Shown here: piece after piece, positions 5,404 to 36,718 of the stretch
Layout: every line of letters starts with the position of its first letter
Position numbering within the stretch: the first letter of the stretch is position 1
Source: a phage
Length of the DNA stretch: 64,000 bases
Direction: 5' to 3' (one strand)
Assembly: GCA_033580375.1 (NCBI GenBank)
Contig: GCA_033580375.1_4527.1
Notes under the pieces: model-generated
The model's database searches: none
What the model was told of the DNA's origin: nothing
The model's input: the letters and a program-made list of their open reading frames with translations, nothing else
Program-made: the position numbers and the translations under genes

Positions 5404-6528
5404 ATGGAAAAATTTATGGCAAGGTTTGGACAGGGATACGTCCAAACGCCGTTTTTATCGGAAAGCAATTCAGTTAGATTTAAGCTAAGTATAGCGGGTT
5501 CATGCCCGCTTTCAACAACTAATCCGTATATTTTGTTCCAAAATGAGCCTTTAGGGTTGCAGTCTTTTGGTATTGGACTAAATGTTAGGGTAATAAATCC
5601 GGAAAATGGAACTATAGTTGATAGTAAATTATACAATTTTGCGCCTACAAATAATGCAACTTCAGCTGCATTTATTTCGTTTGTTAATACATACGCAGAT
5701 AATTTCATTTTCGCATTTATTTCTAATAACAAATTTAATTTGCCACCAGAAATAATTGAATGGTTTAAAGCTGCTGGGAGTTCAGTTATACCGTCAATTG
5801 AAGTTGCTAGTCTTGTTGATATTTCATATTCAGCGTTTTATGTTTCAGGTAAAAATACTATTGCATTGGAACACATAAAATACAGTAATAAGAAAACAAT
5901 TTCTGATTACTCAACTCCATTAGATATTGTATATGACTCTATTGCTGATATAGGTGCTACCGGCTATCCTAGACGTACATACGAAGCTCTAGAAACGTTT
6001 TTATCTCCTGTTGGAGGAACTAACAATGAAATAAAAAGGGTGCCTACATCATCCCTTGTTACTCCTATCGCAAACTATGGATTAAAGCCTACAGATTTTC
6101 TTTATTTGAAATTTCAATTAATGGCTGATGAAGCATTACTAGAGGAAGGAACCACAAGACTTTCAATTCGTTTCTTTAAGTCTCCATCTAGCTCTCCTAT
6201 ATCGTCTAAAGATATAAACTTTGACGGAACTGCTGGGGTGTGGAAGCTGTATGAAGAATACGTTGAAATACCAGCTGAAGCCGATGGTTTTACAGTATAT
6301 TGTTACCGTACGGCCCCAGTCGGTCAAGGTGGACTAAGAAATGTTATTTTCACTGAAGTATCATGTAACGGAAGTATAGCAAAACCTGCCGAGTTTGGCC
6401 TAAATGGTATTCGTGCTAATTACATCGATGAATCATTAACCGGTAATGATATAATGGACTTGCCTACTCAGTTATCTAACGACACGGGTAAGGTATTTGG
6501 GCAGGAATTTAAAGAGTACACAGAATAA
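5404..6528 (+). CDS. 35: Long tail fibre hinge connector gp35
   Basis: 374 aa (T4 gp35 372 aa), directly follows gene 34 with RBS AAGAGG. Confidence 0.8.
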   Translation: MEKFMARFGQGYVQTPFLSESNSVRFKLSIAGSCPLSTTNPYILFQNEPLGLQSFGIGLNVRVINPENGTIVDSKLYNFAPTNNATSAAFISFVNTYADNFIFAFISNNKFNLPPEIIEWFKAAGSSVIPSIEVASLVDISYSAFYVSGKNTIALEHIKYSNKKTISDYSTPLDIVYDSIADIGATGYPRRTYEALETFLSPVGGTNNEIKRVPTSSLVTPIANYGLKPTDFLYLKFQLMADEALLEEGTTRLSIRFFKSPSSSPISSKDINFDGTAGVWKLYEEYVEIPAEADGFTVYCYRTAPVGQGGLRNVIFTEVSCNGSIAKPAEFGLNGIRANYIDESLTGNDIMDLPTQLSNDTGKVFGQEFKEYTE

Positions 6529-6529
6529 A

Positions 6530-6549
6530 GGAGACTTCGGTCTCCTTTT
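6530..6549 (+). terminator. Intrinsic terminator-like hairpin (GGAGAC-UUCG-GUCUCC + U-tract) after gene 35
   Basis: Perfect 6-bp stem with UUCG tetraloop followed by TTTT immediately after gene 35 stop. Confidence 0.5.
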
Positions 6550-6553
6550 CGCG

Positions 6554-6561
6554 TATAAATA
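6554..6561 (+). promoter_or_regulatory. T4-type late promoter (TATAAATA) upstream of gene 36
   Basis: TATAAATA about 27 nt upstream of the gene 36 ATG, followed by RBS AAGGAG. Confidence 0.55.
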
Positions 6562-6587
6562 CTTTAATATTAATAAGGAGACACGAA

Positions 6588-7244
6588 ATGGCCGATTTAA
6601 AAGCCGGAAGTACAGTTGGTGGTTCCGTCATATGGCATCAAGGCAATTTTCCTTTAATGCCAGCTGGCGATGACATCCTATATAAAACATTTAAATTATA
6701 CACTGAATATAACAAGCCAAAAGCGGCTGATAACGATTTCGTATCTAAAGCAAACGGCGGGACATATCTCAAAAAGGTAATCTTTAACGAAGGTGTTGCA
6801 GTCAAAACAGCAGATGACCAAACGAATGGTATTTTTTCTGGTGGTGGTGACGCCGCGACATTCGACCAAACAAACATGGATATTGTTTCGTGGTATGGTA
6901 TTGGGTTTAAATCATCTCAAGGTACCGGTGAAAGAACTGTTGTAATTGATACTCGCACCGGTAATATAAGTTCTAAAGGCGTTATTGAAGCATCTCAATT
7001 CAGAGCCACAACGTTAGCACCTTTAAATAATTACGACCTTACTCGCAAAGATTATGTTGATAGTCAAATAAATACAGTTAATGCTAATGCAAACAGTCGT
7101 GTACTCCGTTCAGGAGATACAATGACCGGTGCGCTAACCGCCCCAAACTTTTTCTCACAGAATCCTGCATCTCAACCCTCGCATGTTCCGCGATTTGACC
7201 AAATTGTTATTAAGGATTCTGTTCAAGATTTCGGCTATTATTAA
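6588..7244 (+). CDS. 36: Long tail fibre distal connector gp36
   Basis: 218 aa (T4 gp36 221 aa), position between 35 and 37. Confidence 0.8.
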   Translation: MADLKAGSTVGGSVIWHQGNFPLMPAGDDILYKTFKLYTEYNKPKAADNDFVSKANGGTYLKKVIFNEGVAVKTADDQTNGIFSGGGDAATFDQTNMDIVSWYGIGFKSSQGTGERTVVIDTRTGNISSKGVIEASQFRATTLAPLNNYDLTRKDYVDSQINTVNANANSRVLRSGDTMTGALTAPNFFSQNPASQPSHVPRFDQIVIKDSVQDFGYY

Positions 7245-7252
7245 GAGGACTT

Positions 7253-10200
7253 ATGGCTACTTTAAAACAAATACAATTTAAAAGAAGCAAAACCGCAGGC
7301 GCACGTCCTGCCGCTTCAGTATTAGCCGAAGGTGAATTGGCTATAAACTTAAAAGACCGTGTACTTTTTACCAAAGATGACCAAGGAAATATTATTGATC
7401 TTGGTTTTGCTAAAGGCGGTAGTATTGACGGGAATGTTATTCACACAGGTAATTATAACCAAACTGGCGATTATACTTTAAATGGCACCTTCACTCAGAC
7501 AGGTAATTTTAATTTAACTGGTATTGCTCGAGTAACTCGTGATGTTATTGCCGCCGGGCAGATTATGACTGAAGGCGGAGAACTTATTACAAAAAGTTCA
7601 GGTACAGCACATGTTCGTTTTTTCGATAACAATAGTCGCGAACGTGGAATCATTTATGCCCCGGCTAATGATGGTTTAACTACACAAGTACTTAATATCA
7701 GGGTTCAAGACTACGCCGCTGGTGATGAAAGCACCTATGCATTTTCGGGCAGTGGACTATTTACTTCACCTGAAGTATCAGCATGGAAATCTATTTCGTC
7801 TCCACAAATTCTGACCGATAAAGTTATTACAAATGGGAAGAAGACGGGCGATTATGATATCTATTCATTATCAAATAACACTCCATTGGCAGAAAGCGAA
7901 ACGGCTATTAACCACCTCCGTGTTATGCGAAATGCTGTAGGAGCAGGTATTTTCCACGAAGTTAATGTTAATGACGGAATAACCTGGTATTCCGGAGATG
8001 GCTTAGACACTTATCTTTGGTCGTTTACCTGGTCCGGTGGATTGAAAGCCGGTCATTCTATCGCTGTAGGTCTTCCAGGCGGTCCAAAAGGATATTCTGA
8101 ATTAGGAACGGCCTCAATTGTTCTTGGTGATAATGATACCGGATTTAAGTGGCATCAGGATGGATATTTCCATACAGTAAACAACGGAACAAAAACTTTC
8201 ATTTACGGTCCTGCGGAAACACAAAGCCTTAGAAAAATGGTTATGGGTTATTCTCCAGATGGGCTTCTTATGACAACGCCACCGACAGAAAACTATGCTT
8301 TGGCCACTGTTGTTACTTACCATGATAATAACGCATACGGCGACGGTCAGACTCTTTTAGGATATTATCAAGGCGGTAATTATCATCACTATTTCCGCGG
8401 TAAAGGTACTACAAACATTAATACTCACGGCGGTTTGTTAGTTACTCCAGGTAATATTGATGTTATTGGCGGTTCTGTTAATATAGATGGTAGAAATAAT
8501 TCTTCTACACTAATGTTTAGAGGCAACACAACAGGATACAGCTCGGTTGATAATATGGATATTAAAGTTTGGGGTAATACGTTTGTTGATCCAAGCGGAG
8601 GTATCCGTAAAAACATTATGGAAATTTCTGATGCAACTAGCTGGATGAGCTATATTCAAAGACTTACTACTGGCGAAGTAGAAATGAACGTTAATGGTTC
8701 ATTTGAATCATCTGGTGTTACTGCTGGAGATAGAGGAGTTCACACAACAGGTGAAATTTCATCTGGAGCAGTGAATGCTCTTCGCATTTGGAATGCAGAT
8801 TATGGAGCCATTTTTAGACGTTCAGAAGGAAGTCTTCATATTATTCCAACTGCTTACGGTGAAGGTAAACACGGTGATATCGGTCCACTTCGCCCGTTTA
8901 GTATGGCTTTAGATACCGGTAAAGTTACTATTCCGGATTTACAATCAAGTTACAATACGTTCGCTGCTAACGGTTATATTAAATTTGTTGGTCATGGAGC
9001 GGGTGCCGGTGGTTATGACATTCAATATTCTCAAGCGGCTCCTATTTTCCAGGAAATCGATGATGATGCTGTAAGCAAATATTATCCTATTGTTAAACAG
9101 AAGTTTTTAAACGGTAAATGCGTTTGGTCTTTAGGTACTGAAATTAATTCGGGTACATTCGTTATTCATCATCTGAAAGAAGATGGTTCACAAGGCCATA
9201 CGTCTCGTTTTAATCAAGACGGTACTGTTAACTTCCCAGATAACGTTTCTGTCGGCGGCGGTGAAGCTACTATTGCTCGTAATGGTAACATCTGGTCTGA
9301 TATCTGGAAAACGTTTACTTCAGCAGGCGACGTAACTAATATTCGCGATGCTATTGCTACTCGCGTTGCCAAAGAAGGCGACACGATGACCGGCACTCTT
9401 TGGATTAATAAAGATGCCGCTGGAATAGTTCTTAATCCTCCTTTGACCAGTGATTCATCATTTATTCGTTCTGATACGGCCGGGGCCAATAATTGGTATA
9501 TTGGTAAAGGCGGTGCCGACAATGGTCTAGGTTTTTACAGTTACATTACACAAGGCGGTGTATACATAACAAATACCGGTGAAATATCGCTTTCTCCTCA
9601 AGGACAAGGAACATTTAATTTTAATAGAGACCGCCTTTATATAAATGCTAGTCAATGGGTTGCACATAAATCTGGCGCTTGGGGCGACCAATGGGGCTTA
9701 GAAGCTCCTGTATTTGTGGATTTTGGCTACGTCGGTAATGATAGTTATTATCCTATTATTAAAGGAAAATCTGTTATTACGAATGAAGGATACGTGTCAG
9801 GCGTTGATTTTGGTATGCGCCGTACCCCTAATATGTGGGCACAAGGTATTATCCGTGTAGGCAACCAGGAAAACGGTTCAGACCCACAAGCCATCTATGA
9901 ATTCCACAGTAACGGTACTTTTTATGCCCCTAGCCTACTTAAGAGCAACAGAGTATCAGCAGGTGGCGGTGACCCCGTATGGGCCGGGCCATGTATTGTT
10001 CTTGGCGATAATGACACAGGTCTAGTTTGGGAAGCAGATGGTATTTTCAACGCATATGCAAACGGACAAGGTGTATTCAGTTTTAGAGCCGGTCTCGCAC
10101 AAACATTTGGTAACGTAGCGTTAAACGTTAACGCAGGTATGTATGTTCGTGATAACATTGATGTTAACGACGTTTATATCCGTTCTGATATTCGCTGTAA

Positions 10201-10504
10201 GTCAGAAATTAAGCTTATTAAGAACGCTCAAGAGAAATCTAAACTCTTAGGCGGCTATACTTATCTGCTTAAAAACTCTGTTACAGACGAAGTTAAACCA
10301 TCTGCAGGTTTAATTGCTCAGGAAGTTCAAGAAGTATTGCCTGAACTTGTTTCTGAAGATAAAGAGACCGGACTGCTTCGTTTGAACTATAACGGTATTA
10401 TTGGTTTAAATACTGCCACTATCAACGAGCATACTGACGAAATCAAGGAATTGAAATCTGAAATTGCTGAGTTGAAAGCATTAATTAAATCATTGATAAA
10501 ATAA
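7253..10504 (+). CDS. 37: Long tail fibre distal subunit gp37 with C-terminal intramolecular chaperone domain
   Basis: 1083 aa; N-terminus MATLKQIQFKRSKTAGARPAASVLAEGELAINLKDR is gp37-like; position and size. Confidence 0.9.
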   Translation: MATLKQIQFKRSKTAGARPAASVLAEGELAINLKDRVLFTKDDQGNIIDLGFAKGGSIDGNVIHTGNYNQTGDYTLNGTFTQTGNFNLTGIARVTRDVIAAGQIMTEGGELITKSSGTAHVRFFDNNSRERGIIYAPANDGLTTQVLNIRVQDYAAGDESTYAFSGSGLFTSPEVSAWKSISSPQILTDKVITNGKKTGDYDIYSLSNNTPLAESETAINHLRVMRNAVGAGIFHEVNVNDGITWYSGDGLDTYLWSFTWSGGLKAGHSIAVGLPGGPKGYSELGTASIVLGDNDTGFKWHQDGYFHTVNNGTKTFIYGPAETQSLRKMVMGYSPDGLLMTTPPTENYALATVVTYHDNNAYGDGQTLLGYYQGGNYHHYFRGKGTTNINTHGGLLVTPGNIDVIGGSVNIDGRNNSSTLMFRGNTTGYSSVDNMDIKVWGNTFVDPSGGIRKNIMEISDATSWMSYIQRLTTGEVEMNVNGSFESSGVTAGDRGVHTTGEISSGAVNALRIWNADYGAIFRRSEGSLHIIPTAYGEGKHGDIGPLRPFSMALDTGKVTIPDLQSSYNTFAANGYIKFVGHGAGAGGYDIQYSQAAPIFQEIDDDAVSKYYPIVKQKFLNGKCVWSLGTEINSGTFVIHHLKEDGSQGHTSRFNQDGTVNFPDNVSVGGGEATIARNGNIWSDIWKTFTSAGDVTNIRDAIATRVAKEGDTMTGTLWINKDAAGIVLNPPLTSDSSFIRSDTAGANNWYIGKGGADNGLGFYSYITQGGVYITNTGEISLSPQGQGTFNFNRDRLYINASQWVAHKSGAWGDQWGLEAPVFVDFGYVGNDSYYPIIKGKSVITNEGYVSGVDFGMRRTPNMWAQGIIRVGNQENGSDPQAIYEFHSNGTFYAPSLLKSNRVSAGGGDPVWAGPCIVLGDNDTGLVWEADGIFNAYANGQGVFSFRAGLAQTFGNVALNVNAGMYVRDNIDVNDVYIRSDIRCKSEIKLIKNAQEKSKLLGGYTYLLKNSVTDEVKPSAGLIAQEVQEVLPELVSEDKETGLLRLNYNGIIGLNTATINEHTDEIKELKSEIAELKALIKSLIK
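10184..10501 (+). other. Peptidase S74-like intramolecular chaperone / autoproteolysis domain at gp37 C-terminus (last ~106 aa)
   Basis: Motif ...DVYIR|SDIRCKSEIKLIK...YTYLLKN...GLIAQEVQEVLPELV...LNYNGIIGLNTATINEHTDEIKELKSEIAELK: Ser-x4-Lys dyad plus IAQEV..V.PE.V core, as in endosialidase/T5 pb1 C-terminal chaperone domains. Confidence 0.6.
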
Positions 10505-10509
10505 TAAAA

Positions 10510-10523
10510 GGGCCTTCGGGCCC
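10510..10523 (+). promoter_or_regulatory. RNA stem-loop (GGGCC-UUCG-GGCCC) between genes 37 and 38, immediately 5' of the gene 38 Shine-Dalgarno
   Basis: Perfect 5-bp GC stem with UUCG loop; no U-tract; followed by tGGAGGttttt-ATG. Confidence 0.4.
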
Positions 10524-10534
10524 TGGAGGTTTTT

Positions 10535-11314
10535 ATGGCAGTAGTAGGAATACCTGGTTGGATTGGAACATCAGCAGTGGCTGAAACAGGTCAACGTTGG
10601 ATGTCAGCAGCTTCTAGAGAATTACGTCTAGGGAACCCATCTTGGATGTCACAATTCGCTGGACGTTCAAGAGAAATTATTCACACTCTTGGAGCAGACC
10701 ATAATTTTAATGGTCAATGGTTCCGTGACCGTTGTTTTGAAGCCGGTGGCGCTCCTATAGTGTTTAATATCACAGGCAACTTAGTATCATATTCTAAAGA
10801 CGTTCCTTTATTCTTCATGTATGGTGATACTCCTAACGAATATGTTACTTTGAATATTCATGGTGGTGTTCATATGTGGGGCCGAGGTGGTAATGGTAGC
10901 GTAAATGGAAGCCCAGGCACTAATGGTGGCGACGTAATCCAAAATGATATTGGTGGACGACTTCGCATTTGGAACTATGGCGTTATTGCATCAGGTGGCG
11001 GTGGCGGCGGTGCAGTGTCGTTAAAGAATAGCTGGGATGCGTATGCTACGGCTGGTGGCGGTGGTGGTAGACCATTTGGTCTCGGCGGTGCTGGCGTTAA
11101 TTGGCCTGGCGGCAATGCTAGTTATGACGCCCCGGGCGGCGCCGGTTACACTTCCCAATTCGGCGGAGGCAATGGCGGTGATGCTGGGGGCGCTGGTGGT
11201 GACGGATGGGGCAGTCACTTATCTAGATCTGGTGGTGGTGCTCCTGGTAGAGCAGTATTCGGAAGTTCACCTTCATGGGGTGCTACAGGCACAATCTATG
11301 GCTCCTGGATTTAA
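10535..11314 (+). CDS. 38: Receptor-recognising adhesin gp38 (T2-type, glycine-rich motifs)
   Basis: 259 aa; conserved N-terminal half ([11 protein letters not shown]...QRWMS...[41 protein letters not shown]) then poly-Gly islands ([29 protein letters not shown]) typical of T2/K3-type gp38. Confidence 0.85.
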
Positions 11315-11332
11315 ACGATAATACCTCTCAAT

Positions 11333-11340
11333 TATAAATA
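11333..11340 (+). promoter_or_regulatory. T4-type late promoter (TATAAATA) upstream of holin gene t
   Basis: TATAAATA about 20 nt upstream of the t start region. Confidence 0.5.
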
Positions 11341-11359
11341 TTGATAAATGGGAGGTAAT

Positions 11360-12019
11360 ATGGCAGCACCAAAAGTATCATTTTCGCCTAGTGATATTTT
11401 ATTTGGGTTGCTAGACCGCATTTTCAAAGATAACGCCTCTGGAAATATTCTTATTTCCAGAGTTGCTGTTGTAGTTCTTTTGTTCCTAATGGCACTAATA
11501 TGGTACAAAGGGAGTATTTTTATGGATTATTACGTGAGGTCGAAATATGATACTTACACAGAAGTAATTCAAAAAGAAAGAAATACACGATTTGAATCTG
11601 CGGCTTTAGAACAACTACAAATAGTCCACGTCACATCAAGGGCGGATTTTAGTTCGGTGTATTCTTTCAGACCTAAAAATCTAAATTATTTCGTCGACCT
11701 TATTGCGTATGAAGGTAAGTTACCTAGCACAGTAACTGAAAAATCTATGGGAGGATTTCCTGTCGATAAAACGACAGCAGAATATTCGGTCCATTTAAGT
11801 GGACTTCACTTTACTTCTAAAACAGATTTTGCTTTCTTACCTACCAAATCAAAAACTCCGGAACTGGCATATATGTATAGTTGTCCTTACTTCAATTTGG
11901 ATAACATATATGCTGGAACTGTTTCTATGTATTGGTACAAGGGGTCGGATGTGTTAAATGAAGAACGCTTGGCAGCAATATGCAACCAAGCAGCAAGGAT
12001 ATTAGGGCGGGCTAAATAA
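11360..12019 (+). CDS. t: Holin T (track ORF starts at 11348 but the GGAGG-spaced ATG at 11360 gives MAAPKVSFSPSDILFG... as in T4)
   Basis: Near-identity to remembered T4 holin T along whole length (SFSPSDILFG, RVAVV.LLF.MA, LEQLQIVH, YSFRPKNLNYFVD.IAYEGKLPST, YMYSCPYFNLDNIYAGT, AARILGRAK). Confidence 0.9.
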   Translation: MAAPKVSFSPSDILFGLLDRIFKDNASGNILISRVAVVVLLFLMALIWYKGSIFMDYYVRSKYDTYTEVIQKERNTRFESAALEQLQIVHVTSRADFSSVYSFRPKNLNYFVDLIAYEGKLPSTVTEKSMGGFPVDKTTAEYSVHLSGLHFTSKTDFAFLPTKSKTPELAYMYSCPYFNLDNIYAGTVSMYWYKGSDVLNEERLAAICNQAARILGRAK

Positions 12020-29692: not shown

Positions 29693-31006
29693 TCAAATAA
29701 AATGGACGTCAAAACGACCACGAGTTGTGCCGACATACAATAGTTGTTTAGCTAATTCTGAATCGGCATAATGGATACACGGTGTATAAACAAAGGCCGT
29801 GTCAACAGACATACCCTGAGCCTTATGGAAGGTTGATACTGGTAGTGCCTTCACCTTAGTGAACATACGTTTAGCATCCCAGAATTCACTCCATGGAGCT
29901 TTACCACCTTTATTCCAGAATTTGTATGTTTCTGCGGTCTTAGCCAAAAACAAATTGAATTTATAAAGCTCTTCTTCGGAAGAAATAACCTTTATATCCT
30001 CGCGGACGTATTCTTCATCATCCCCATATGTTTCTACTGTAAGATTCCAGTATCGTATCATATATTCGCCTGAAACACCACGTGCTTTAACGAATGTAGA
30101 CGTTTCTACAGCATCTCGAATACGAACGAATTGCCCGTTATTGAAAAGCATTTCGGTCATATTTTTGCCATCTAGCTTATATGTCTTAGTAAATGGCTCT
30201 TGTAGAACAATGACCTCGTCTTTAATAAATGGTTTTTCTGTTTCAAGAAGTTTTCGGCGAATAATTGAATTCAACTTGTCAACCGACTTATTTGTGAATG
30301 CCATCATTCGATTTTCGAAAAGGTCTTCAGGAGTTTTAACGACATTAAAATAGTTCATCATATACGATTTAAGGTCTGTATATCCATGAACACCATGTCC
30401 GTCAACTACTTTATCATAAATCCATTTGCCATTACGAATATCAGTCGCAACATCAATAATTGGTGCATTGCTACGTTTAACTTCTGTAAGGTTGCATTGC
30501 ACGAAGTCTTTGTGAGTGAAGAAAGGACTTAGATACGCAGTGGATTCGCCTGGGTCTACAGGTCGAATCTGACATCGGTCACCAATTCCAATTACTGTGC
30601 ACCATTTAGGGATACTAGCTAACATTATTTTAAACAGAGAACGGTCACACATTGATGCTTCATCAAATAACAGTACACGACACAAGGCTAAGTCGGGAAC
30701 CTTTTTCTGTTCAAACAATACGTTTTCTTCGTATGTGGTTGGGTTGATTTTAAGAATGCTATGAATGGTTGATGCTTCTTGTCCGGCAAGTTTGCTTAGA
30801 ACCTTTTTAGCAGCGTGTGTTGGTGCTGCTAAAATAATACCTGATTCTCCAGAAGAAATAAGGGCTTCAACGATGAATCTAGTAAGGGTTGTTTTACCTG
30901 TACCAGCAGGCCCATTAATAGTTACATGATGTTTCTTTTCTTTAATAGCGTTCATAACAACGTTGAAGGCGTTTTTCTGGCCGTCAGTCAAATCATCAAA
31001 TGTCAT
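29693..31006 (-). CDS. dda: SF1B DNA helicase Dda
   Basis: 437 aa (T4 Dda 439 aa); MTFDDLT.GQKNAF, Walker A GPAGTGKTT, helicase motifs. Confidence 0.9.
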   Translation of the reverse strand: MTFDDLTDGQKNAFNVVMNAIKEKKHHVTINGPAGTGKTTLTRFIVEALISSGESGIILAAPTHAAKKVLSKLAGQEASTIHSILKINPTTYEENVLFEQKKVPDLALCRVLLFDEASMCDRSLFKIMLASIPKWCTVIGIGDRCQIRPVDPGESTAYLSPFFTHKDFVQCNLTEVKRSNAPIIDVATDIRNGKWIYDKVVDGHGVHGYTDLKSYMMNYFNVVKTPEDLFENRMMAFTNKSVDKLNSIIRRKLLETEKPFIKDEVIVLQEPFTKTYKLDGKNMTEMLFNNGQFVRIRDAVETSTFVKARGVSGEYMIRYWNLTVETYGDDEEYVREDIKVISSEEELYKFNLFLAKTAETYKFWNKGGKAPWSEFWDAKRMFTKVKALPVSTFHKAQGMSVDTAFVYTPCIHYADSELAKQLLYVGTTRGRFDVHFI

Positions 31007-31314
31007 CGTAAAGTCCCTGCAATTGGAATACTAACAATACGGCCTGTGTCCAGGATTCGTTGATATAATCTTTGCGTCTCCGCATCTAGTTTAATGTGTT
31101 TCATTTCAAGCTTATTAAACCAGAACTTACGCGGAGTTTCGACCATTCTTAGAACTCCCATTTTTAAATCTGTTTTATACTGTGTTTTCAAAGTATCGAA
31201 AACTTTATCTGCAATATCCTTTCTAAAAAATACTGCAGGACGATGCTCATCAAGTGGAACCGGGACAGTAAATCCTTCCATATCTCGATAAACTATTGCA
31301 TATACATAAACCAT
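31003..31314 (-). CDS. hypothetical protein (dda.1 position)
   Basis: 103-aa track ORF overlapping dda start by 4 nt. Confidence 0.45.
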   Translation of the reverse strand: MVYVYAIVYRDMEGFTVPVPLDEHRPAVFFRKDIADKVFDTLKTQYKTDLKMGVLRMVETPRKFWFNKLEMKHIKLDAETQRLYQRILDTGRIVSIPIAGTLR

Positions 31315-31316
31315 AA

Positions 31317-32063
31317 TTAACCTTTAATTAGTTGGAATAATGATGCGCTAAGTGGTAAGCCACGTTTCAATTTTAATTTACCAATGAAACCAATCTTTTC
31401 AAAACGTTGCAAACCTTGGATAACTTTATCATATGTATCGAAAAGCGATTCAGCGTCAGTTAATTTAGTTTTAGTTTTCCAGTCAGAGCCTTTAAGAAGA
31501 ACGTTGAGTTTAGTAAGTTCATGGCCTTCTGCTTGATGTGAGCCATTAATGCGTGCCTTCAAAGCAACAATTCTAAGTTTAGATTCGTTAGATAAAGGTT
31601 GATTTTTCATCATGTTAGCCATATGCTTAACACGATTTTCACGTTTTGCTCGGATTTTTAAAATAGTACCATAAACCTTTTTAATTTGGGCCCATTTCTT
31701 CTCATCAAGATTAAGTTTCTCTACTTTACGGACAGAAGGATTAGCGATACGTCTTGCAATGGCATCACGTTTCTCAATAAGTTCTTCTAATGTTAAATCA
31801 GAACGAGCCGTGTTATATTTTTTCTTAACTGGGATAACATTACCTTTAATGTAGCCGATATCGTTATCAAAACGTTCTAAGGATAATTTCTCACCTTCAA
31901 CAGAGTTATTGAAAGATTCACCTGAGTAAGCGCAGACCTTTTGATCAAGAATGTTTTTAAGGTAATTAAAGTCTAAGTTAAAATCCTTAGAGCGTCTCTT
32001 CGCAGAAGCTCTGGTGTGGTCAAGACGACGATTGATTTTGTTAATTTTATTATTTGATAACAT
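31317..32063 (-). CDS. hypothetical basic protein (Srd-like by position and size)
   Basis: 248 aa, lysine/arginine rich; T4 srd lies after dda.1. Positional guess. Confidence 0.35.
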   Translation of the reverse strand: MLSNNKINKINRRLDHTRASAKRRSKDFNLDFNYLKNILDQKVCAYSGESFNNSVEGEKLSLERFDNDIGYIKGNVIPVKKKYNTARSDLTLEELIEKRDAIARRIANPSVRKVEKLNLDEKKWAQIKKVYGTILKIRAKRENRVKHMANMMKNQPLSNESKLRIVALKARINGSHQAEGHELTKLNVLLKGSDWKTKTKLTDAESLFDTYDKVIQGLQRFEKIGFIGKLKLKRGLPLSASLFQLIKG

Positions 32064-32215
32064 AATATTTTCCTCTGTCTTACGGACGTTAGGTCATTTA
32101 GCTGATAAGCTTATAATATCATGCCCTCAGGCAGTGTACACTCTTTTTTCATAAAATGCTTTAATTTTTTATGTGTTATAATGGTTCTGAGTTCCATCCG
32201 GTTATTCCAATCCAG

Positions 32216-32824
32216 TCAGTAACTGACAATAGTCAGATTCCAGATTGTATAATTTCCGTCTTGAATAATAGAATCTACACGCAGTGTAGTCCCTATAGGG
32301 AGCATAAATTCACATTCGTCAGATATAAGTCTAGCATTAGACCGTCTTGTCGCTTCAGGGAAAGCTCCATTGAACTCACAAGACGGCGCAGCCAGAATCA
32401 TATTAAGCATATGTTCACGGAAGTTGAAAGCAAATGGTGCATCTTTGATGCAGAACATATTAAATGTTCCGTAAAAATTATACGAAGCGAAGTTACGTGC
32501 TACACCGAACACCGGGCTGAAGCTCATTACTCTATCAAATTTAATAATACTACCAACGCCTTTATCATCAAGTGTGGCCATAGTTTTCTTAGAGATTCCA
32601 CGATACATTGTCTCAGGAACAGAAGACGACCAATTTCTACGAACAATTGCACTTAAATCTTGTTGGATGCTATCAGGCTTGTTTTCCATACACTGCCATA
32701 GTACACTTTGTTCAATGTCGCTGAATTGCTCATCGATTTTGTACTGAAGCATATCTTGATAATCTGGACATTGAGCACGTCGAACCATTTCCTCAATTTC
32801 ACATTCATTATACGGCATAAACAT
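32216..32824 (-). CDS. ADP-ribosyltransferase (ModA/ModB-like)
   Basis: 202 aa; R-S-E triad motifs visible: MYRGIS (Arg), MSFSPV (S-x-S), SDECEFMLP (catalytic Glu-x-Glu); position matches T4 modA/modB. Confidence 0.65.
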   Translation of the reverse strand: MFMPYNECEIEEMVRRAQCPDYQDMLQYKIDEQFSDIEQSVLWQCMENKPDSIQQDLSAIVRRNWSSSVPETMYRGISKKTMATLDDKGVGSIIKFDRVMSFSPVFGVARNFASYNFYGTFNMFCIKDAPFAFNFREHMLNMILAAPSCEFNGAFPEATRRSNARLISDECEFMLPIGTTLRVDSIIQDGNYTIWNLTIVSY

Positions 32825-33232
32825 TTTGGTTTCTCCTATGGTTGATAAAGGTATAGTATCATCATCGGAAGAGTTTGTACACTAAAAATTCAACATTTTC
32901 AAATGAATGATTTTGTATAATCGAGATAAAGGGATATATTCTAAGTCTTCAATTTCCACAATCTCAAATCTAGAGATACTTGAGACCATGTACTCTTATT
33001 CAGATTGACATGTCATGATAGACCTCCATTTAAAGATAAGCCTATCATAACACGAAAGGAGGGAATGTAAACTACTTTTTAAGCTTTCCTACTAAAGGAC
33101 CGTCAGGCCCAGGTTGTTCTAACATGAATGGTGATGCTTTAAGAAGCAATGCCAACCCTTTCACCATTCGATACCATATCTCAAAGTCCTTTTTCTTGGT
33201 TTCCACTAAGAATTGCTCTTTCAAATGCTCTT

Positions 33233-33421
33233 TCATTTCCAAGGACTCCACGGTGGTGGGTCGTCATAATAAGAGGCTAGGTCTTTCAGGACTTCTAATG
33301 GTAAACTAAAACCATGACGTTGTATAATACTATCAATTTCATTGACAAGTTCACCACGTTGTTCTTTAGGAGCCTTGACTTCAGGCTCATCAAACATACT
33401 CATCAAGTCCATATTATTCAC
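33233..33421 (-). CDS. hypothetical protein
   Basis: 62-aa track ORF. Confidence 0.35.
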   Translation of the reverse strand: MNNMDLMSMFDEPEVKAPKEQRGELVNEIDSIIQRHGFSLPLEVLKDLASYYDDPPPWSPWK

Positions 33422-33878
33422 CGAGATAAAAACTAGCCGGTTCAGAGAATGTTTCTAGTGCTACACCTTTTGTCTTAAAAAATTTCCAAATAGCTCGTTG
33501 CAAATGGATTAAATCTGCTAATGATGTAATAAAGTATTTTTTGGCAAAATACTTATGGTCTCGCTTTTCAAACAGGTCTAAACGCTTTTCAGGATTCACA
33601 TAAACAGCATTTTCTGTAGATTCGTACCCTAAATCCTTTATGCCTTCTTCAAGACTAAATGGAGAATTTTTAGAATGAGTAATAGCTCCAACTCGCTCTA
33701 CACGAATTTTGTAACCTTTAGGAATCTGCAATTTACAGAATTCTTCTACGATATATTGCGGATTATTTAGACTTTTGTTAATGAGAATAGCTATTTCTAG
33801 TGGAGTCTTATCTTCTACTGGTATATGTTTAAATGACTTGGCTTCAAGCAAATACATTTTAAATAACATAGCATCCAT
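33414..33878 (-). CDS. hypothetical protein
   Basis: 154-aa track ORF. Confidence 0.45.
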   Translation of the reverse strand: MDAMLFKMYLLEAKSFKHIPVEDKTPLEIAILINKSLNNPQYIVEEFCKLQIPKGYKIRVERVGAITHSKNSPFSLEEGIKDLGYESTENAVYVNPEKRLDLFEKRDHKYFAKKYFITSLADLIHLQRAIWKFFKTKGVALETFSEPASFYLGE

Positions 33879-34053
33879 TATAATTTCCTCAATGGTTCAC
33901 CCATATAAAGTTTTACAATACGTTCGCCTTCATCTTCGACGAGCTTTTCTTCATGTTTCTGGAGTTCTTTGACCATTTTCTCTTCAAAAACATCTAACCA
34001 ATCTTCTGGACCGACACCATCATTCAAGCTTTTAAACCATTTTACTATTCTGT

Positions 34054-34302
34054 TCATTCACAGCTCCCTGAGCTTGAACTACAATCAGAATCACTTGTCC
34101 CAGAATCACCAGGCCAAGACGATACGTATGAATGATTATAACTTGAAGAGCTTGAAGCATTAACCTGTTTTGTTTTTGGACGAATAATTTCTTCCATCAT
34201 TCCGTCACCGATATATTCCCAACTTTTTTCATGTGTATCAGGAATAGGCATCATCCCCTCGCCTGGTTTAGCAGCAAACAACTTCTTCAGCATCGTAAGC
34301 AT
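34054..34302 (-). CDS. hypothetical protein with Ser-rich C-terminus (start at internal ATG after RBS GAGGAA)
   Basis: Track ORF 34054..34377 trimmed to the ATG that follows the stop of the upstream ORF. Confidence 0.35.
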   Translation of the reverse strand: MLTMLKKLFAAKPGEGMMPIPDTHEKSWEYIGDGMMEEIIRPKTKQVNASSSSSYNHSYVSSWPGDSGTSDSDCSSSSGSCE

Positions 34303-34495
34303 TAATTGTTCCTCGAACAAAACGAACACCACCATCATCCCAACGGATTTCGGCATTAAATTTGACGTCTTCACCATCCATCATGAATGAGTGTACGACT
34401 ACATCATCGTAATATCCAAGACCGTATTTCAACGAAACTTCTTGAGCAATCAAAGCACCTAATGTGTTATTAGGTTTAATCCAACGATTTAACAT
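34268..34495 (-). CDS. hypothetical protein
   Basis: 75-aa track ORF preceded by early-promoter-like GTTTACA-17-TAAGAT. Confidence 0.4.
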   Translation of the reverse strand: MLNRWIKPNNTLGALIAQEVSLKYGLGYYDDVVVHSFMMDGEDVKFNAEIRWDDGGVRFVRGTINAYDAEEVVCC

Positions 34496-34560
34496 ATTGT
34501 TCTCCTCTTGAGTAAGTAAGAATATCTTAACATAGTTTTTAGTGGTTGTAAACTCTAGAA

Positions 34561-34587
34561 ACGAAAAAAGGAATCCCGAAGGATTCC
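34561..34587 (-). terminator. Intrinsic terminator (GGAAUCC-UUCG-GGAUUCC + U6, minus strand) downstream of soc
   Basis: 7-bp perfect stem, UUCG loop, followed by TTTTTTCG on minus strand. Confidence 0.6.
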
Positions 34588-34596
34588 TTAAATTAT

Positions 34597-34833
34597 TTAA
34601 CCACTTACTGGTGTAGGGGTAAACATTGTAGCGTTCTTAGTACGCCAATCTTCTGCGCTTGACACTACCGTAGTGTAAGCAGCTTTTTCAGATGGGAAAG
34701 TCTGATAATGAGCATCAGCAATTCGGTGCTCATTTGAGTAAATCTCAAACGGAACCGAAACTTCCATACCTTTAACTTCTTTGCCTTCACCAGCAGGATG
34801 CGTAAAGGTTTTGATGTTTACATAACCACCCAT
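34597..34833 (-). CDS. soc: Small outer capsid protein Soc
   Basis: 78 aa; GYVNIKTF...HYQTFPSEKAAY.TV matches remembered T4 Soc. Confidence 0.85.
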   Translation of the reverse strand: MGGYVNIKTFTHPAGEGKEVKGMEVSVPFEIYSNEHRIADAHYQTFPSEKAAYTTVVSSAEDWRTKNATMFTPTPVSG

Positions 34834-34864
34834 AATTAACTCCTTTGTTGTTTAATTACAGGTG

Positions 34865-34872
34865 TATTTATA
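34865..34872 (-). promoter_or_regulatory. T4-type late promoter (TATAAATA on minus strand) upstream of soc
   Basis: Minus strand TATAAATA about 30 nt upstream of soc ATG. Confidence 0.5.
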
Positions 34873-34878
34873 ACTTAA

Positions 34879-35415
34879 TTAGTACCCATTATCCTGACGT
34901 TCAAAGTTGTGTTGGTTTTTCAAGTAGTAAAGTTTAAAGATTTCTTCAGCCGAAAGACCTAGACCCTGGAACATATTTAGAACGAAATGCAGAATATCAA
35001 TCATTTCAAATTTAATTTCAAGTTGGTCTTCAGGAGACAGTTCATCGATACGACGATTTCGATATTCAGCATGTTGTGCTTTCCAAGGCTTCCATACACT
35101 GCTGGCAGCTTTTTCACCATTGCTCATACCACCAAGTGAAGTCAGCAGTTCACGGAATTCATCATCAATATAATCTTTCTGATTACGCAGCCAATCAACA
35201 ACATCGCCAGCAGTGACCAATTCATCAGGATGTTTGTTATGTTCAGGCTTGTCATTTGCCAGACGAACCTGTAAAGATTTCTGCATATCAAGCATTACCT
35301 GCAGTGGGTCTTTATCTTCGTGAATCAGAGCATTAAAATAAGCTTCTTCTGCTTTATCAACACCAGAAATAAGTTGTGAACATTCATTAAAGTGTGCCAT
35401 TATTTTTCCTTTCAA
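34879..35415 (-). CDS. 56: dCTPase/dCTP pyrophosphatase gp56 (MazG-like)
   Basis: 178 aa (T4 gp56 171 aa); position between soc and primase. Confidence 0.8.
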   Translation of the reverse strand: MKGKIMAHFNECSQLISGVDKAEEAYFNALIHEDKDPLQVMLDMQKSLQVRLANDKPEHNKHPDELVTAGDVVDWLRNQKDYIDDEFRELLTSLGGMSNGEKAASSVWKPWKAQHAEYRNRRIDELSPEDQLEIKFEMIDILHFVLNMFQGLGLSAEEIFKLYYLKNQHNFERQDNGY

Positions 35416-35489
35416 TTCAGTATAAGAGAGTTAATTCTAACATTAATTTTATAAAGCGTAATAAATAATAAGGTAACTAAGGAGATATT

Positions 35490-35687
35490 ATGTTTAAACT
35501 TCCATCGTTAATCAATGCTATTAAAGGCAATAAAAAGAAAACTGCTATCGCTGCAATAGTTGTAGGTGGCATTATTTCATGGAACTTCGGTATCGCACCG
35601 GTGTTAGTTGCTAATGGTATTATAGTTCCTTCTGTTCCGTTGGATACTGTTGTTGACCTAGCTTTTGCTGTTATAGGGCTAGTCTAA
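35490..35687 (+). CDS. small hydrophobic protein on opposite strand (candidate membrane peptide)
   Basis: 65-aa plus-strand ORF with strong RBS (AAGGAG, 7 nt spacing) in a minus-strand block; predicted hydrophobic helices; 3' end overlaps primase stop by 4 nt. Confidence 0.35.
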   Translation: MFKLPSLINAIKGNKKKTAIAAIVVGGIISWNFGIAPVLVANGIIVPSVPLDTVVDLAFAVIGLV

Positions 35688-36718
35688 ATTTTAGAATACC
35701 GAGATAATCTCATTTTAGCATGCAACCCACTTGAAATATTCTGTTTCATATATTCTAAAATTTCTTGTGGTGTTGCATTTTCTTTCATTACCATATCATT
35801 CACATCCTTTGATCTCCATGGAGCTCTATCCCAGAACATGACACGTTCGCCTGCATCAACTAATCGCTTCATACGAGCTATAGTATCCGGATGCCTAGGT
35901 TCATTATCCATTACCCATACCCGACGTTCTTTAAATGGTACCACATCTAAATCTATTGAGCCGCCTGTAATAGCGATTGCATTAGGTATGAATAAACTAT
36001 CAATAGGGCCTTCCATTACCCAGACGTCTCCTTCCTTAACACGTTCAACACCATAAATTTTTGTTGCGGACTCAAAAGCTTTAATAGTGATATATTTTTG
36101 AGGAGCATCTTTGCGAAGTGCACGTCCTTGAAATGACTCGGCCTTCCCGTCTTTATTAAAAATAGGAATCACTAAACGCGGTTCGGGAATCTCTTTCTTA
36201 TACGTACCAGGTTGAATCTTGTTGACCAATTTAGGCCATTCTAATGTGAACCATAATCTGTTCCACGATTCTTTAGGAATACACCGAGACTTAACATATT
36301 TCACAATAGGATGCTCTTCAGGCAACTTGTCCAGACGAGAACAAGACGGCAAAGAATTTATAGTCTTTTTCTCCGGTTCTGGTTTATGTTCAGGAACCTT
36401 TTCGATCTTTGGTTCCATTCTAGCTTTTTCTTTACGAACTTCCATTAGATATTCGCGATAAAGCTCTTCGTCATACTCTTTTAAGTATCCAGAAATCGTA
36501 TTATGATATTGGCAGTTATAGCAATGCACATTACCTGGAGTACCGCCATAATACCATCCGCGGGCTTTCATTGCATCTGTCTGAGAGTCGCCACAAACTG
36601 GACAACGAAACGTTAATTTAAATGTGCTTGAATTATTGATTTGTCTAAAACGAGGTAGGTGAGAAAACGCACGATAAGCAAATTCATTATCTATCCATTC
36701 AGCCATAGTATTCTCCAA
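35684..36718 (-). CDS. 61: DNA primase gp61
   Basis: 344 aa (T4 gp61 342 aa); zinc ribbon CPVCGDS...CYNC and TOPRIM motifs (VMEGPIDSLF, VWVMDNEPRH); N-terminus WIDNEFAYRA matches T4. Confidence 0.9.
   Translation of the reverse strand: MENTMAEWIDNEFAYRAFSHLPRFRQINNSSTFKLTFRCPVCGDSQTDAMKARGWYYGGTPGNVHCYNCQYHNTISGYLKEYDEELYREYLMEVRKEKARMEPKIEKVPEHKPEPEKKTINSLPSCSRLDKLPEEHPIVKYVKSRCIPKESWNRLWFTLEWPKLVNKIQPGTYKKEIPEPRLVIPIFNKDGKAESFQGRALRKDAPQKYITIKAFESATKIYGVERVKEGDVWVMEGPIDSLFIPNAIAITGGSIDLDVVPFKERRVWVMDNEPRHPDTIARMKRLVDAGERVMFWDRAPWRSKDVNDMVMKENATPQEILEYMKQNISSGLHAKMRLSRYSKI

Follow-up and report, generated by a model that had tools for sequence, protein, structure and literature searches.

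In the T-even phages T2 and T6, the C terminus of gp37, the distal subunit of the long tail fiber, undergoes proteolytic cleavage, after which gp38 caps the fiber (PMC3157838, citing Drexler et al. 1986, the T2 processing being the work of Drexler, Riede and Henning). In phage S16, the last 113 residues of gp37 form an auto-cleaved intramolecular chaperone, which is cut at DLNVS^SDRRIKK (^ marks the cut) and whose release bares the docking surface for gp38 (PMC7917993). The crystal structure of the S16 (gp37)3-gp38 complex (PDB 6F45, Dunne et al. 2018, described in PMC6851490) shows three conserved tryptophans of gp38 filling pockets on the gp37 trimer and a polyglycine-II sandwich in the adhesin. 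For the fPS phages, a cut at DVYIR^SDGRLK was proposed in 2021 by alignment to the S16 site (PMC7917993). Here we describe a locus of this kind on a 64,000-nucleotide stretch of phage DNA (GenBank assembly GCA_033580375.1, contig GCA_033580375.1_4527.1), the whole of which we call the window and whose numbering is used for all coordinates. Its gene 37 (positions 7253 to 10504, + strand) encodes a distal long-tail-fiber subunit of 1083 amino acids (aa) with a C-terminal Peptidase_S74 domain and is followed, after a gap of 30 nucleotides, by gene 38 (10535 to 11314, + strand), which encodes a tail-fiber adhesin of the T2/S16 type (259 aa, 26.2 kDa). With a probability that we put at roughly 90%, these two genes specify the standard distal tip of the long tail fiber, as it occurs in T-even phages (Straboviridae) of the T2/S16 type.

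The window shares with S16 the order of the two genes, a gp37 that carries an S74 chaperone with an S-D-x-R-x-K site (the two chaperones are 51% identical) and a gp38 with the same three-domain layout, the same three conserved tryptophans and glycine-rich motifs (47.5% identity). It differs from S16 in having a much longer gp37 shaft (1083 aa versus 749 aa for the whole protein), in the strand that precedes the cut (DVYIR versus DLNVS), in the hypervariable loops and in the receptor, which is Salmonella OmpC for S16 and is probably Escherichia coli OmpF here. The gp38 of T2 was reportedly described as an adhesin by Riede et al. in 1987. It is 53% identical to that of the window and has a matching layout of glycine-rich motifs and hypervariable segments, and the T2 gp37 also ends in PF13884 (E=1.3e-16), with SDIRLK 99 aa from its end and NVYIR in front of it. 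The T2 gp37 is 1341 aa long, however, its chaperone is of a different subtype (33% identity; the window chaperone is nearer to the S16 type) and its receptor is FadL (PMC8594841). Escherichia phage AlbertHofmann (Bas47) has a gp37 that is also 1083 aa long and 91.5% identical to that of the window, with a 98% identical chaperone. More distant relatives of the domain are the chaperones of an endosialidase (3GW6), the GA-1 neck appendage (3GUD) and the MyRF ICA (7DC3), which share with the window PF13884, the Ser-x4-Lys layout at the start of the domain and the predicted fold; they are only 12-23% identical to it in structural alignments and serve another cargo, a tailspike enzyme or a transcription factor instead of a tail-fiber beta-helix that is later capped by a separate adhesin. 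The endosialidase and GA-1 domains are those said to have been described by Schulz et al. in 2010.

A preliminary description of this stretch had singled out positions 10184 to 11314, reading them as a tail of about 106 residues on gp37, marked by the segments SDIRCK, IAQEV and LNYNG of an S74 chaperone, followed by a gp38 adhesin. Both the boundaries and the content were borne out. The codon for Ser978 opens at position 10184 and the stop codon of gp38 closes at 11314; the fragment from Ser978 to Lys1083 (10184 to 10501, + strand) is 106 aa long, has a mass of 11.8 kDa and sits at the extreme C terminus of the protein. The profile similarity to S74 domains on which that description had made its reading depend was found: aa 978-1033 align with positions 1-57 of the 58-position PF13884 profile (E=9.8e-12, 45.4 bits versus a curated cut-off of 22), the only other Pfam match on gp37 being Gp34_trimer at aa 453-550. 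All 29 database homologues of the C-terminal fragment carry PF13884, as do the gp37 proteins of T2 and S16, both of which have documented processing. In an alignment of 27 PF13884 proteins drawn from a large protein database, S978, D979 and K983 were at least 90% conserved, and G1019, A1022, Q1023, P1030 and V1033 were invariant. The core motif IAQEV (aa 1021-1025; 10313 to 10327, + strand) lies within this alignment, and the predicted nucleophile Ser978 and general base Lys983 are the first and last residues of SDIRCK (aa 978-983; 10184 to 10201, + strand).

Comparison with solved structures led to the same assignment. The last 139 aa of gp37 match the deposited sequence of S16 gp37 (6F45_A) at 2.9e-24, and the SDIRCK dyad aligns to SDRRIK of that protein. 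When a profile of seven gp37 tails was compared with the PDB, it matched the MyRF ICA 7DC3 (1.8e-9), the tail fiber 8JOV (2.2e-7) and the GA-1 neck-appendage chaperone 3GUD (1.6e-3). The chain of the last of these, a released chaperone, starts with SDERHK, the first residue of which is the counterpart of Ser978 in the alignment; at the position of the dyad 7DC3 has A-D-L-R-A-K, i.e., A-x4-K, and its lysine aligns with Lys983. An AlphaFold2 (AF2) model of gp37 aa 940-1083 had a mean predicted local distance difference test score (pLDDT) of 83.6, with values above 90 over the chaperone (aa 980-1083), and consisted there of a small core of beta structure and, at the C terminus, a helix of 37 residues (aa 1046-1082, fragment residues 107-143; pLDDT 91-98). 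This helix follows the LNYNG strand (aa 1044-1048, 10382-10396), and the region as a whole (aa 1044-1082; 10382 to 10498, + strand), to which the helical tail of 7DC3 is homologous, is predicted to be a trimerizing coiled coil. In a Foldseek search of the PDB, the model matched 7DC3 with a probability of 1.0 (template modeling score, 0.60-0.62) and the endosialidase chaperone 3GW6 with a probability of 0.94-0.99, and beyond these two there was no match with E<0.3. The S16 entry 6F45_A was not among the Foldseek matches, though its deposited sequence contains the chaperone; the cleaved chaperone is likely absent from the crystal coordinates. A chance occurrence of S-x4-K was considered and rejected. 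The bare motif, which is present twice in gp37, is weak evidence, SD.R.K is present once only, and profile, dyad alignment and fold all point to a true S74 domain. The gp37 tail is thus, by profile, solved relatives, conservation and predicted fold, an S74 intramolecular-chaperone domain.

The second half of the interval encodes an adhesin with the two features that the preliminary description had attributed to it, a conserved N-terminal attachment region and glycine islands that separate variable segments. The Gp38_N family (PF21721) matches gp38 aa 1-42 (E=7.7e-21, 74.3 bits), the GP38 family (PF05268) matches aa 47-259 (E=1.1e-82, 277.6 bits), each with a cut-off of 25 bits, and two crystallized adhesins match along the full length of the protein, the PP01 gp38 receptor-binding domain (9V85; aa 40-258, 2.1e-72) and S16 gp38 (6F45_D; aa 8-259, 6.1e-51). 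The attachment domain (aa 1-42; 10535 to 10660, + strand) contains W9, W22 and W37, which correspond to the three docking tryptophans of S16 gp38 and are invariant in the seven gp38 proteins of the window, Bas47, fPS-2, ESh24, FL33, S16 and T2. Column entropies were calculated from 22 distinct full-length gp38 sequences taken from annotated phages and viral contigs; in this set, too, W37 does not vary, and conservation at W9 and W22 is 80% or higher. The linker and central beta-helix that follow (aa 43-114; 10661 to 10876, + strand), delimited by alignment to the S16 and PP01 structures, have a mean column entropy of 1.10 bits. The specificity region (aa 115-243; 10877 to 11263, + strand) was delimited by the contrast in entropy between two kinds of segment, and glycine makes up 34% of aa 115-259. 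Its five glycine-rich motifs (aa 115-121, 153-159, 173-185, 211-221 and 233-243), which are 45-86% Gly, have mean column entropies of 0.45, 0.22, 0.58, 0.97 and 1.02 bits, respectively, versus 1.19, 2.38, 1.88 and 2.36 bits for the hypervariable segments between them (aa 122-152, 160-172, 186-210 and 222-232; the last three are HVS2, HVS3 and HVS4). These results identify gp38 as a T2/S16-type adhesin, and its full-length homology to the solved adhesins predicts a polyglycine-II sandwich fold. Two further open reading frames that overlap gene 38, at 11021-11218 (- strand) and 11037-11321 (+ strand), were rejected as spurious by-products of its GC-rich glycine codons, the enclosing gene having family support at E=1e-82.

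We compared the junction between the two genes in a set of 28 related loci that encode the gp38 N-terminal domain and in the window. In the window and in all 28 related loci, which include RB43-like loci with a short gp38 of 155-174 aa, the open reading frame directly upstream of gp38 contains SDxRxK 94-117 aa from its C terminus, and in most of the related loci this site is preceded by (N/D)VYIR. The SDIRCK variant is common to the window, Bas47 (L001), ESh24 (L003) and three more of the related loci (L007, L008 and L010). In the window, the site reads DVYIR^SDIRCK, and its first five residues are identical to those of the fPS site. An S74-tailed gp37 followed by a gp38 adhesin is the canonical arrangement, with T4 as the exception, and the suggestion in the preliminary description that the locus combines two elements in an unusual pairing did not hold. 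The model of the tip that it put forward, in which gp38 sits on the processed end of gp37 and the loops between the glycine islands set the host range, agrees with the published model for T2, T6, S16 and the fPS phages (PMC3157838, PMC6851490, PMC7917993); for the cleavage step the agreement is by homology only. The system is already known in its mechanism, structure and distribution, and may be regarded as textbook biology.

By analogy with these phages, the tip would be built as follows. The gp37 subunit would be synthesized as a precursor of 1083 aa and 116.8 kDa, of which the chaperone, S978-K1083, would trimerize through its long C-terminal helix and template the folding of the trimeric beta-helical end of the fiber. 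The Ser978/Lys983 dyad would then cleave between R977 and S978 and the 11.8-kDa chaperone would depart, leaving a mature subunit of 977 aa and 105.0 kDa that ends in ...NDVYIR. Residues DVYIR (aa 973-977; 10169 to 10183, + strand), which are delimited by the related loci and by the fPS site (PMC7917993), are predicted to be the beta-strand with which mature gp37 ends and to contribute to the surface on which gp38 docks. A single gp38 would cap the exposed trimeric face, its aa 1-42 putting W9, W22 and W37 into the gp37 pockets, and its glycine-rich motifs would form the polyglycine-II sandwich, from which the hypervariable loops would touch the outer-membrane receptor. The domain identities, the conservation of the dyad, the predicted fold, the pattern of motifs and variable segments and the gene order are observed in this locus; from its homologues we infer the cleavage, the 3:1 stoichiometry, the docking of the tryptophans and the receptor.

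Several points weigh against this interpretation. The cleavage, the stoichiometry and the receptor of this phage are all carried over from relatives, autocatalytic cleavage in particular from T2 (Drexler 1986, via PMC3157838) and S16 (via PMC7917993). The residues on the N-terminal side of the chaperone, aa 940-977, were poorly modeled as a monomer (pLDDT 41-73), and the docking face is unmodeled because of these low values. Many GenBank records name the homologous gene as an assembly chaperone or catalyst of the tail fiber, "distal long tail fiber assembly catalyst" and "long tail fiber assembly chaperone" being labels used in several. As for the receptor, gp38 differs from its OmpF-mapped relatives at 11-24 positions, and its A186, A220 and S227 differ from all four of the close relatives compared, position 220 being W or R in these. 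The OmpF assignment could be wrong because single loop changes shift specificity in the gp38 family.

The receptor is the part of the interpretation with the strongest alternative. The gp38 of the window is 97.7% identical to that of Shigella phage ESh24, 95.8% to that of Bas47, 91.9% to that of Yersinia phage fPS-2 and 90.7% to that of Escherichia phage FL33. Three of these relatives, at 91-96% identity, have mapped receptors, and in the comparison with receptor-mapped phages that the preliminary description had proposed, all three proved to depend on OmpF: the ompF dependency of Bas47 was confirmed by complementation (PMC8594841), the receptor of fPS-2 is OmpF plus lipopolysaccharide (LPS) (PMC7917993) and that of FL33 is OmpF (PMC12032242). 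In addition, a phylogeny of 223 gp38 sequences found that close gp38 relatives generally recognize the same receptor (PMC12032242). Because the close gp38 proteins have OmpF-mapped receptors and related gp38 proteins generally share a receptor, OmpF, possibly with a contribution from the LPS core, is the most likely receptor, and we hold this with reasonable, though far from full, confidence. The alternative is that the architecture is as described but that this allele binds another receptor, such as OmpC, Tsx, OmpA, FadL or LPS alone, which we consider unlikely but worth serious attention. It draws on the distribution of the differences, which outside the N-terminal attachment domain fall mostly in the hypervariable loops. 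From window to Bas47, the 11 changes in gp38 are S24T, A54T, S122T, S126N, K164Q, D168A, A169P, Y170N, A186G, A220W and S227N, 9 of which lie in the specificity region of glycine motifs and hypervariable segments, as do all 6 of the differences from ESh24. Among the four close relatives, K164, D168, A169 and Y170 are common to the window and ESh24 only, and A186, A220 and S227 are seen in none. Specificity in this family is altered by small changes in the loops (PMC3157838). Against this alternative stand the shared receptor of the three mapped relatives and the tendency of near relatives in the phylogeny to keep theirs. It appears improbable that the hypervariable-loop substitutions have turned the allele from OmpF to another receptor or widened its range beyond OmpF; if this were so, the allele would be a natural single-step receptor switch on an otherwise OmpF-type scaffold.

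A second alternative is that the S74-like tail is kept in the mature fiber, either with an inactive dyad or as a permanent cap, and that gp38 binds elsewhere or on the chaperone itself. Cleavage of this particular gp37 is indeed drawn from homologues, and position 982, beside Lys983, is a cysteine, where most other tails have Leu, Ile or Val. However, Ser978, Asp979, Arg981 and Lys983 are intact and fit the conserved SDxRxK, the cysteine variant recurs in the five related loci named above, and the gp38 docking face of S16 is bared only once the chaperone has been released (PMC7917993). Moreover, the gp38 of the window is 91-92% identical to those of fPS-2 and FL33, the chaperones are 33-34% identical, and NDVYIR is the conserved part. 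Conservation of gp38 alongside divergent chaperones is what contact of gp38 with the mature end of gp37, and not with the chaperone, would produce, and retention of the tail is in our view very improbable. The weakest alternative, that gp38 is a T4-type assembly chaperone outside the virion and gp37 itself binds the receptor, has on its side a gene position that is the same as that of T4 gene 38 and the record names given above, but it was rejected as scarcely credible, since those names are inherited from T4, BLASTP aligned the window gp38 with T4 gp38 only at a nonsignificant level (E=0.13; 60 aa, 18% identical), the two proteins have no Pfam overlap, the full-length matches of the window gp38 are to adhesin families and to the solved S16 and PP01 adhesins, the T4 gp37 C terminus carries Collar and Phage_fiber domains without S74/PF13884, and the T4 record itself calls the T2-subfamily gp38 an unrelated adhesin.

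Read as a canonical T2/S16-type tip, the locus matters for its annotation alone. The correct annotation of this phage would name gp38, not gp37, as its receptor-binding protein, the predicted mature end of gp37 at R977 is useful for recombinant fiber or adhesin constructs, and the suggestion of OmpF may aid host-range prediction and the choice of phages for cocktails. It opens no new question, the processing of T2 gp37, the structure of the S16 gp37-gp38 complex and the role of the hypervariable loops all being established.

The gp37 of the window is strongly mosaic. Compared with ESh24, the window gp37 is 91-100% identical over aa 1-700, 41-44% identical over aa 701-900 and 96% identical over the chaperone. 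The two phages fPS-2 and FL33, with gp38 proteins 91-92% identical to that of the window, nevertheless have unrelated gp37 tips (11-23%) and chaperones of another subtype (33-34%), and at the gp37 junction NDVYIR^SDxRxK is the sole element that they have in common with the window. By its sequence, this junction has the appearance of a recombination joint. An NCBI Escherichia coli record includes, on a 166-kb contig, a 121-aa "tail fiber domain-containing protein" (P0001) that is 100% identical to the gp37 C terminus, which points to a phage genome deposited under the name of its host and annotated with a split or truncated gp37.

Between the stop codons of gene 37 and the Shine-Dalgarno sequence of gene 38 (GGAGG, 10525-10529) lies a GC hairpin, GGGCC-UUCG-GGCCC (10510 to 10523, + strand; RNAfold, -12.3 kcal/mol). 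A GC hairpin is present at the same site in 25 of the 29 sequences (the window and 24 of the 28 related loci) with differing stems and loops, such as GGGGC-UUUG-CCCC, GAGCC-UACG-GGCUC and GGGGCG-UAAU-GCCCC, and the changes are compensatory. We take this hairpin to resemble the C(UUCG)G intercistronic hairpins of T4 mRNAs. It could serve in mRNA stabilization, the tuning of translation or the attenuation of transcription.

Genes 37 and 38 belong to a long-tail-fiber block of the T-even type on the + strand (5404-12019), which consists of gp35, gp36, gp37, gp38 and holin t. The hinge protein gp35 (5404 to 6528, + strand) is encoded by an open reading frame of 374 aa, gp36 (218 aa, PF03903, + strand) lies between gp35 and gp37, and holin t (PF11031, + strand) lies downstream of gp38. 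In the gap between genes 38 and t, the T4 late-promoter consensus TATAAATA is present at 11333-11340. The start listed for the open reading frame of holin t (11348, giving 223 aa) is probably wrong. The likely start is 11360, which is preceded by GGAGG at 11353-11357 and gives the 219 aa found in relatives and in independent gene calls. The genome backbone is that of a T-even-like member of the Straboviridae, positions 30000-36000 being 97.4% identical to phage phiE142. In the whole 64-kb window, ARAGORN found no tRNA gene, and a search for Rfam families gave no match at or above the gathering threshold. For the g37-g38 DNA, the best match to a named phage in a GenBank-derived phage collection was only 90.4% identical. 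An exact copy of gp38, with 100% identical DNA over the 5.4 kb of the locus compared, is present in the assembly of a public read set, SRR24624930 (Logan contig 59, L032), and two other runs contain 99.3% identical copies of the locus with four substitutions in gp37 (L030 and L031). These three copies yield the same gene calls as the locus in the window. Finally, gp35 aa 58-131 match PF15711 (ILEI, interleukin-like EMT inducer) at 30.2 bits, above the gathering threshold of 27 (E=6.5e-7), an unexpected family name for the hinge protein of a phage fiber.

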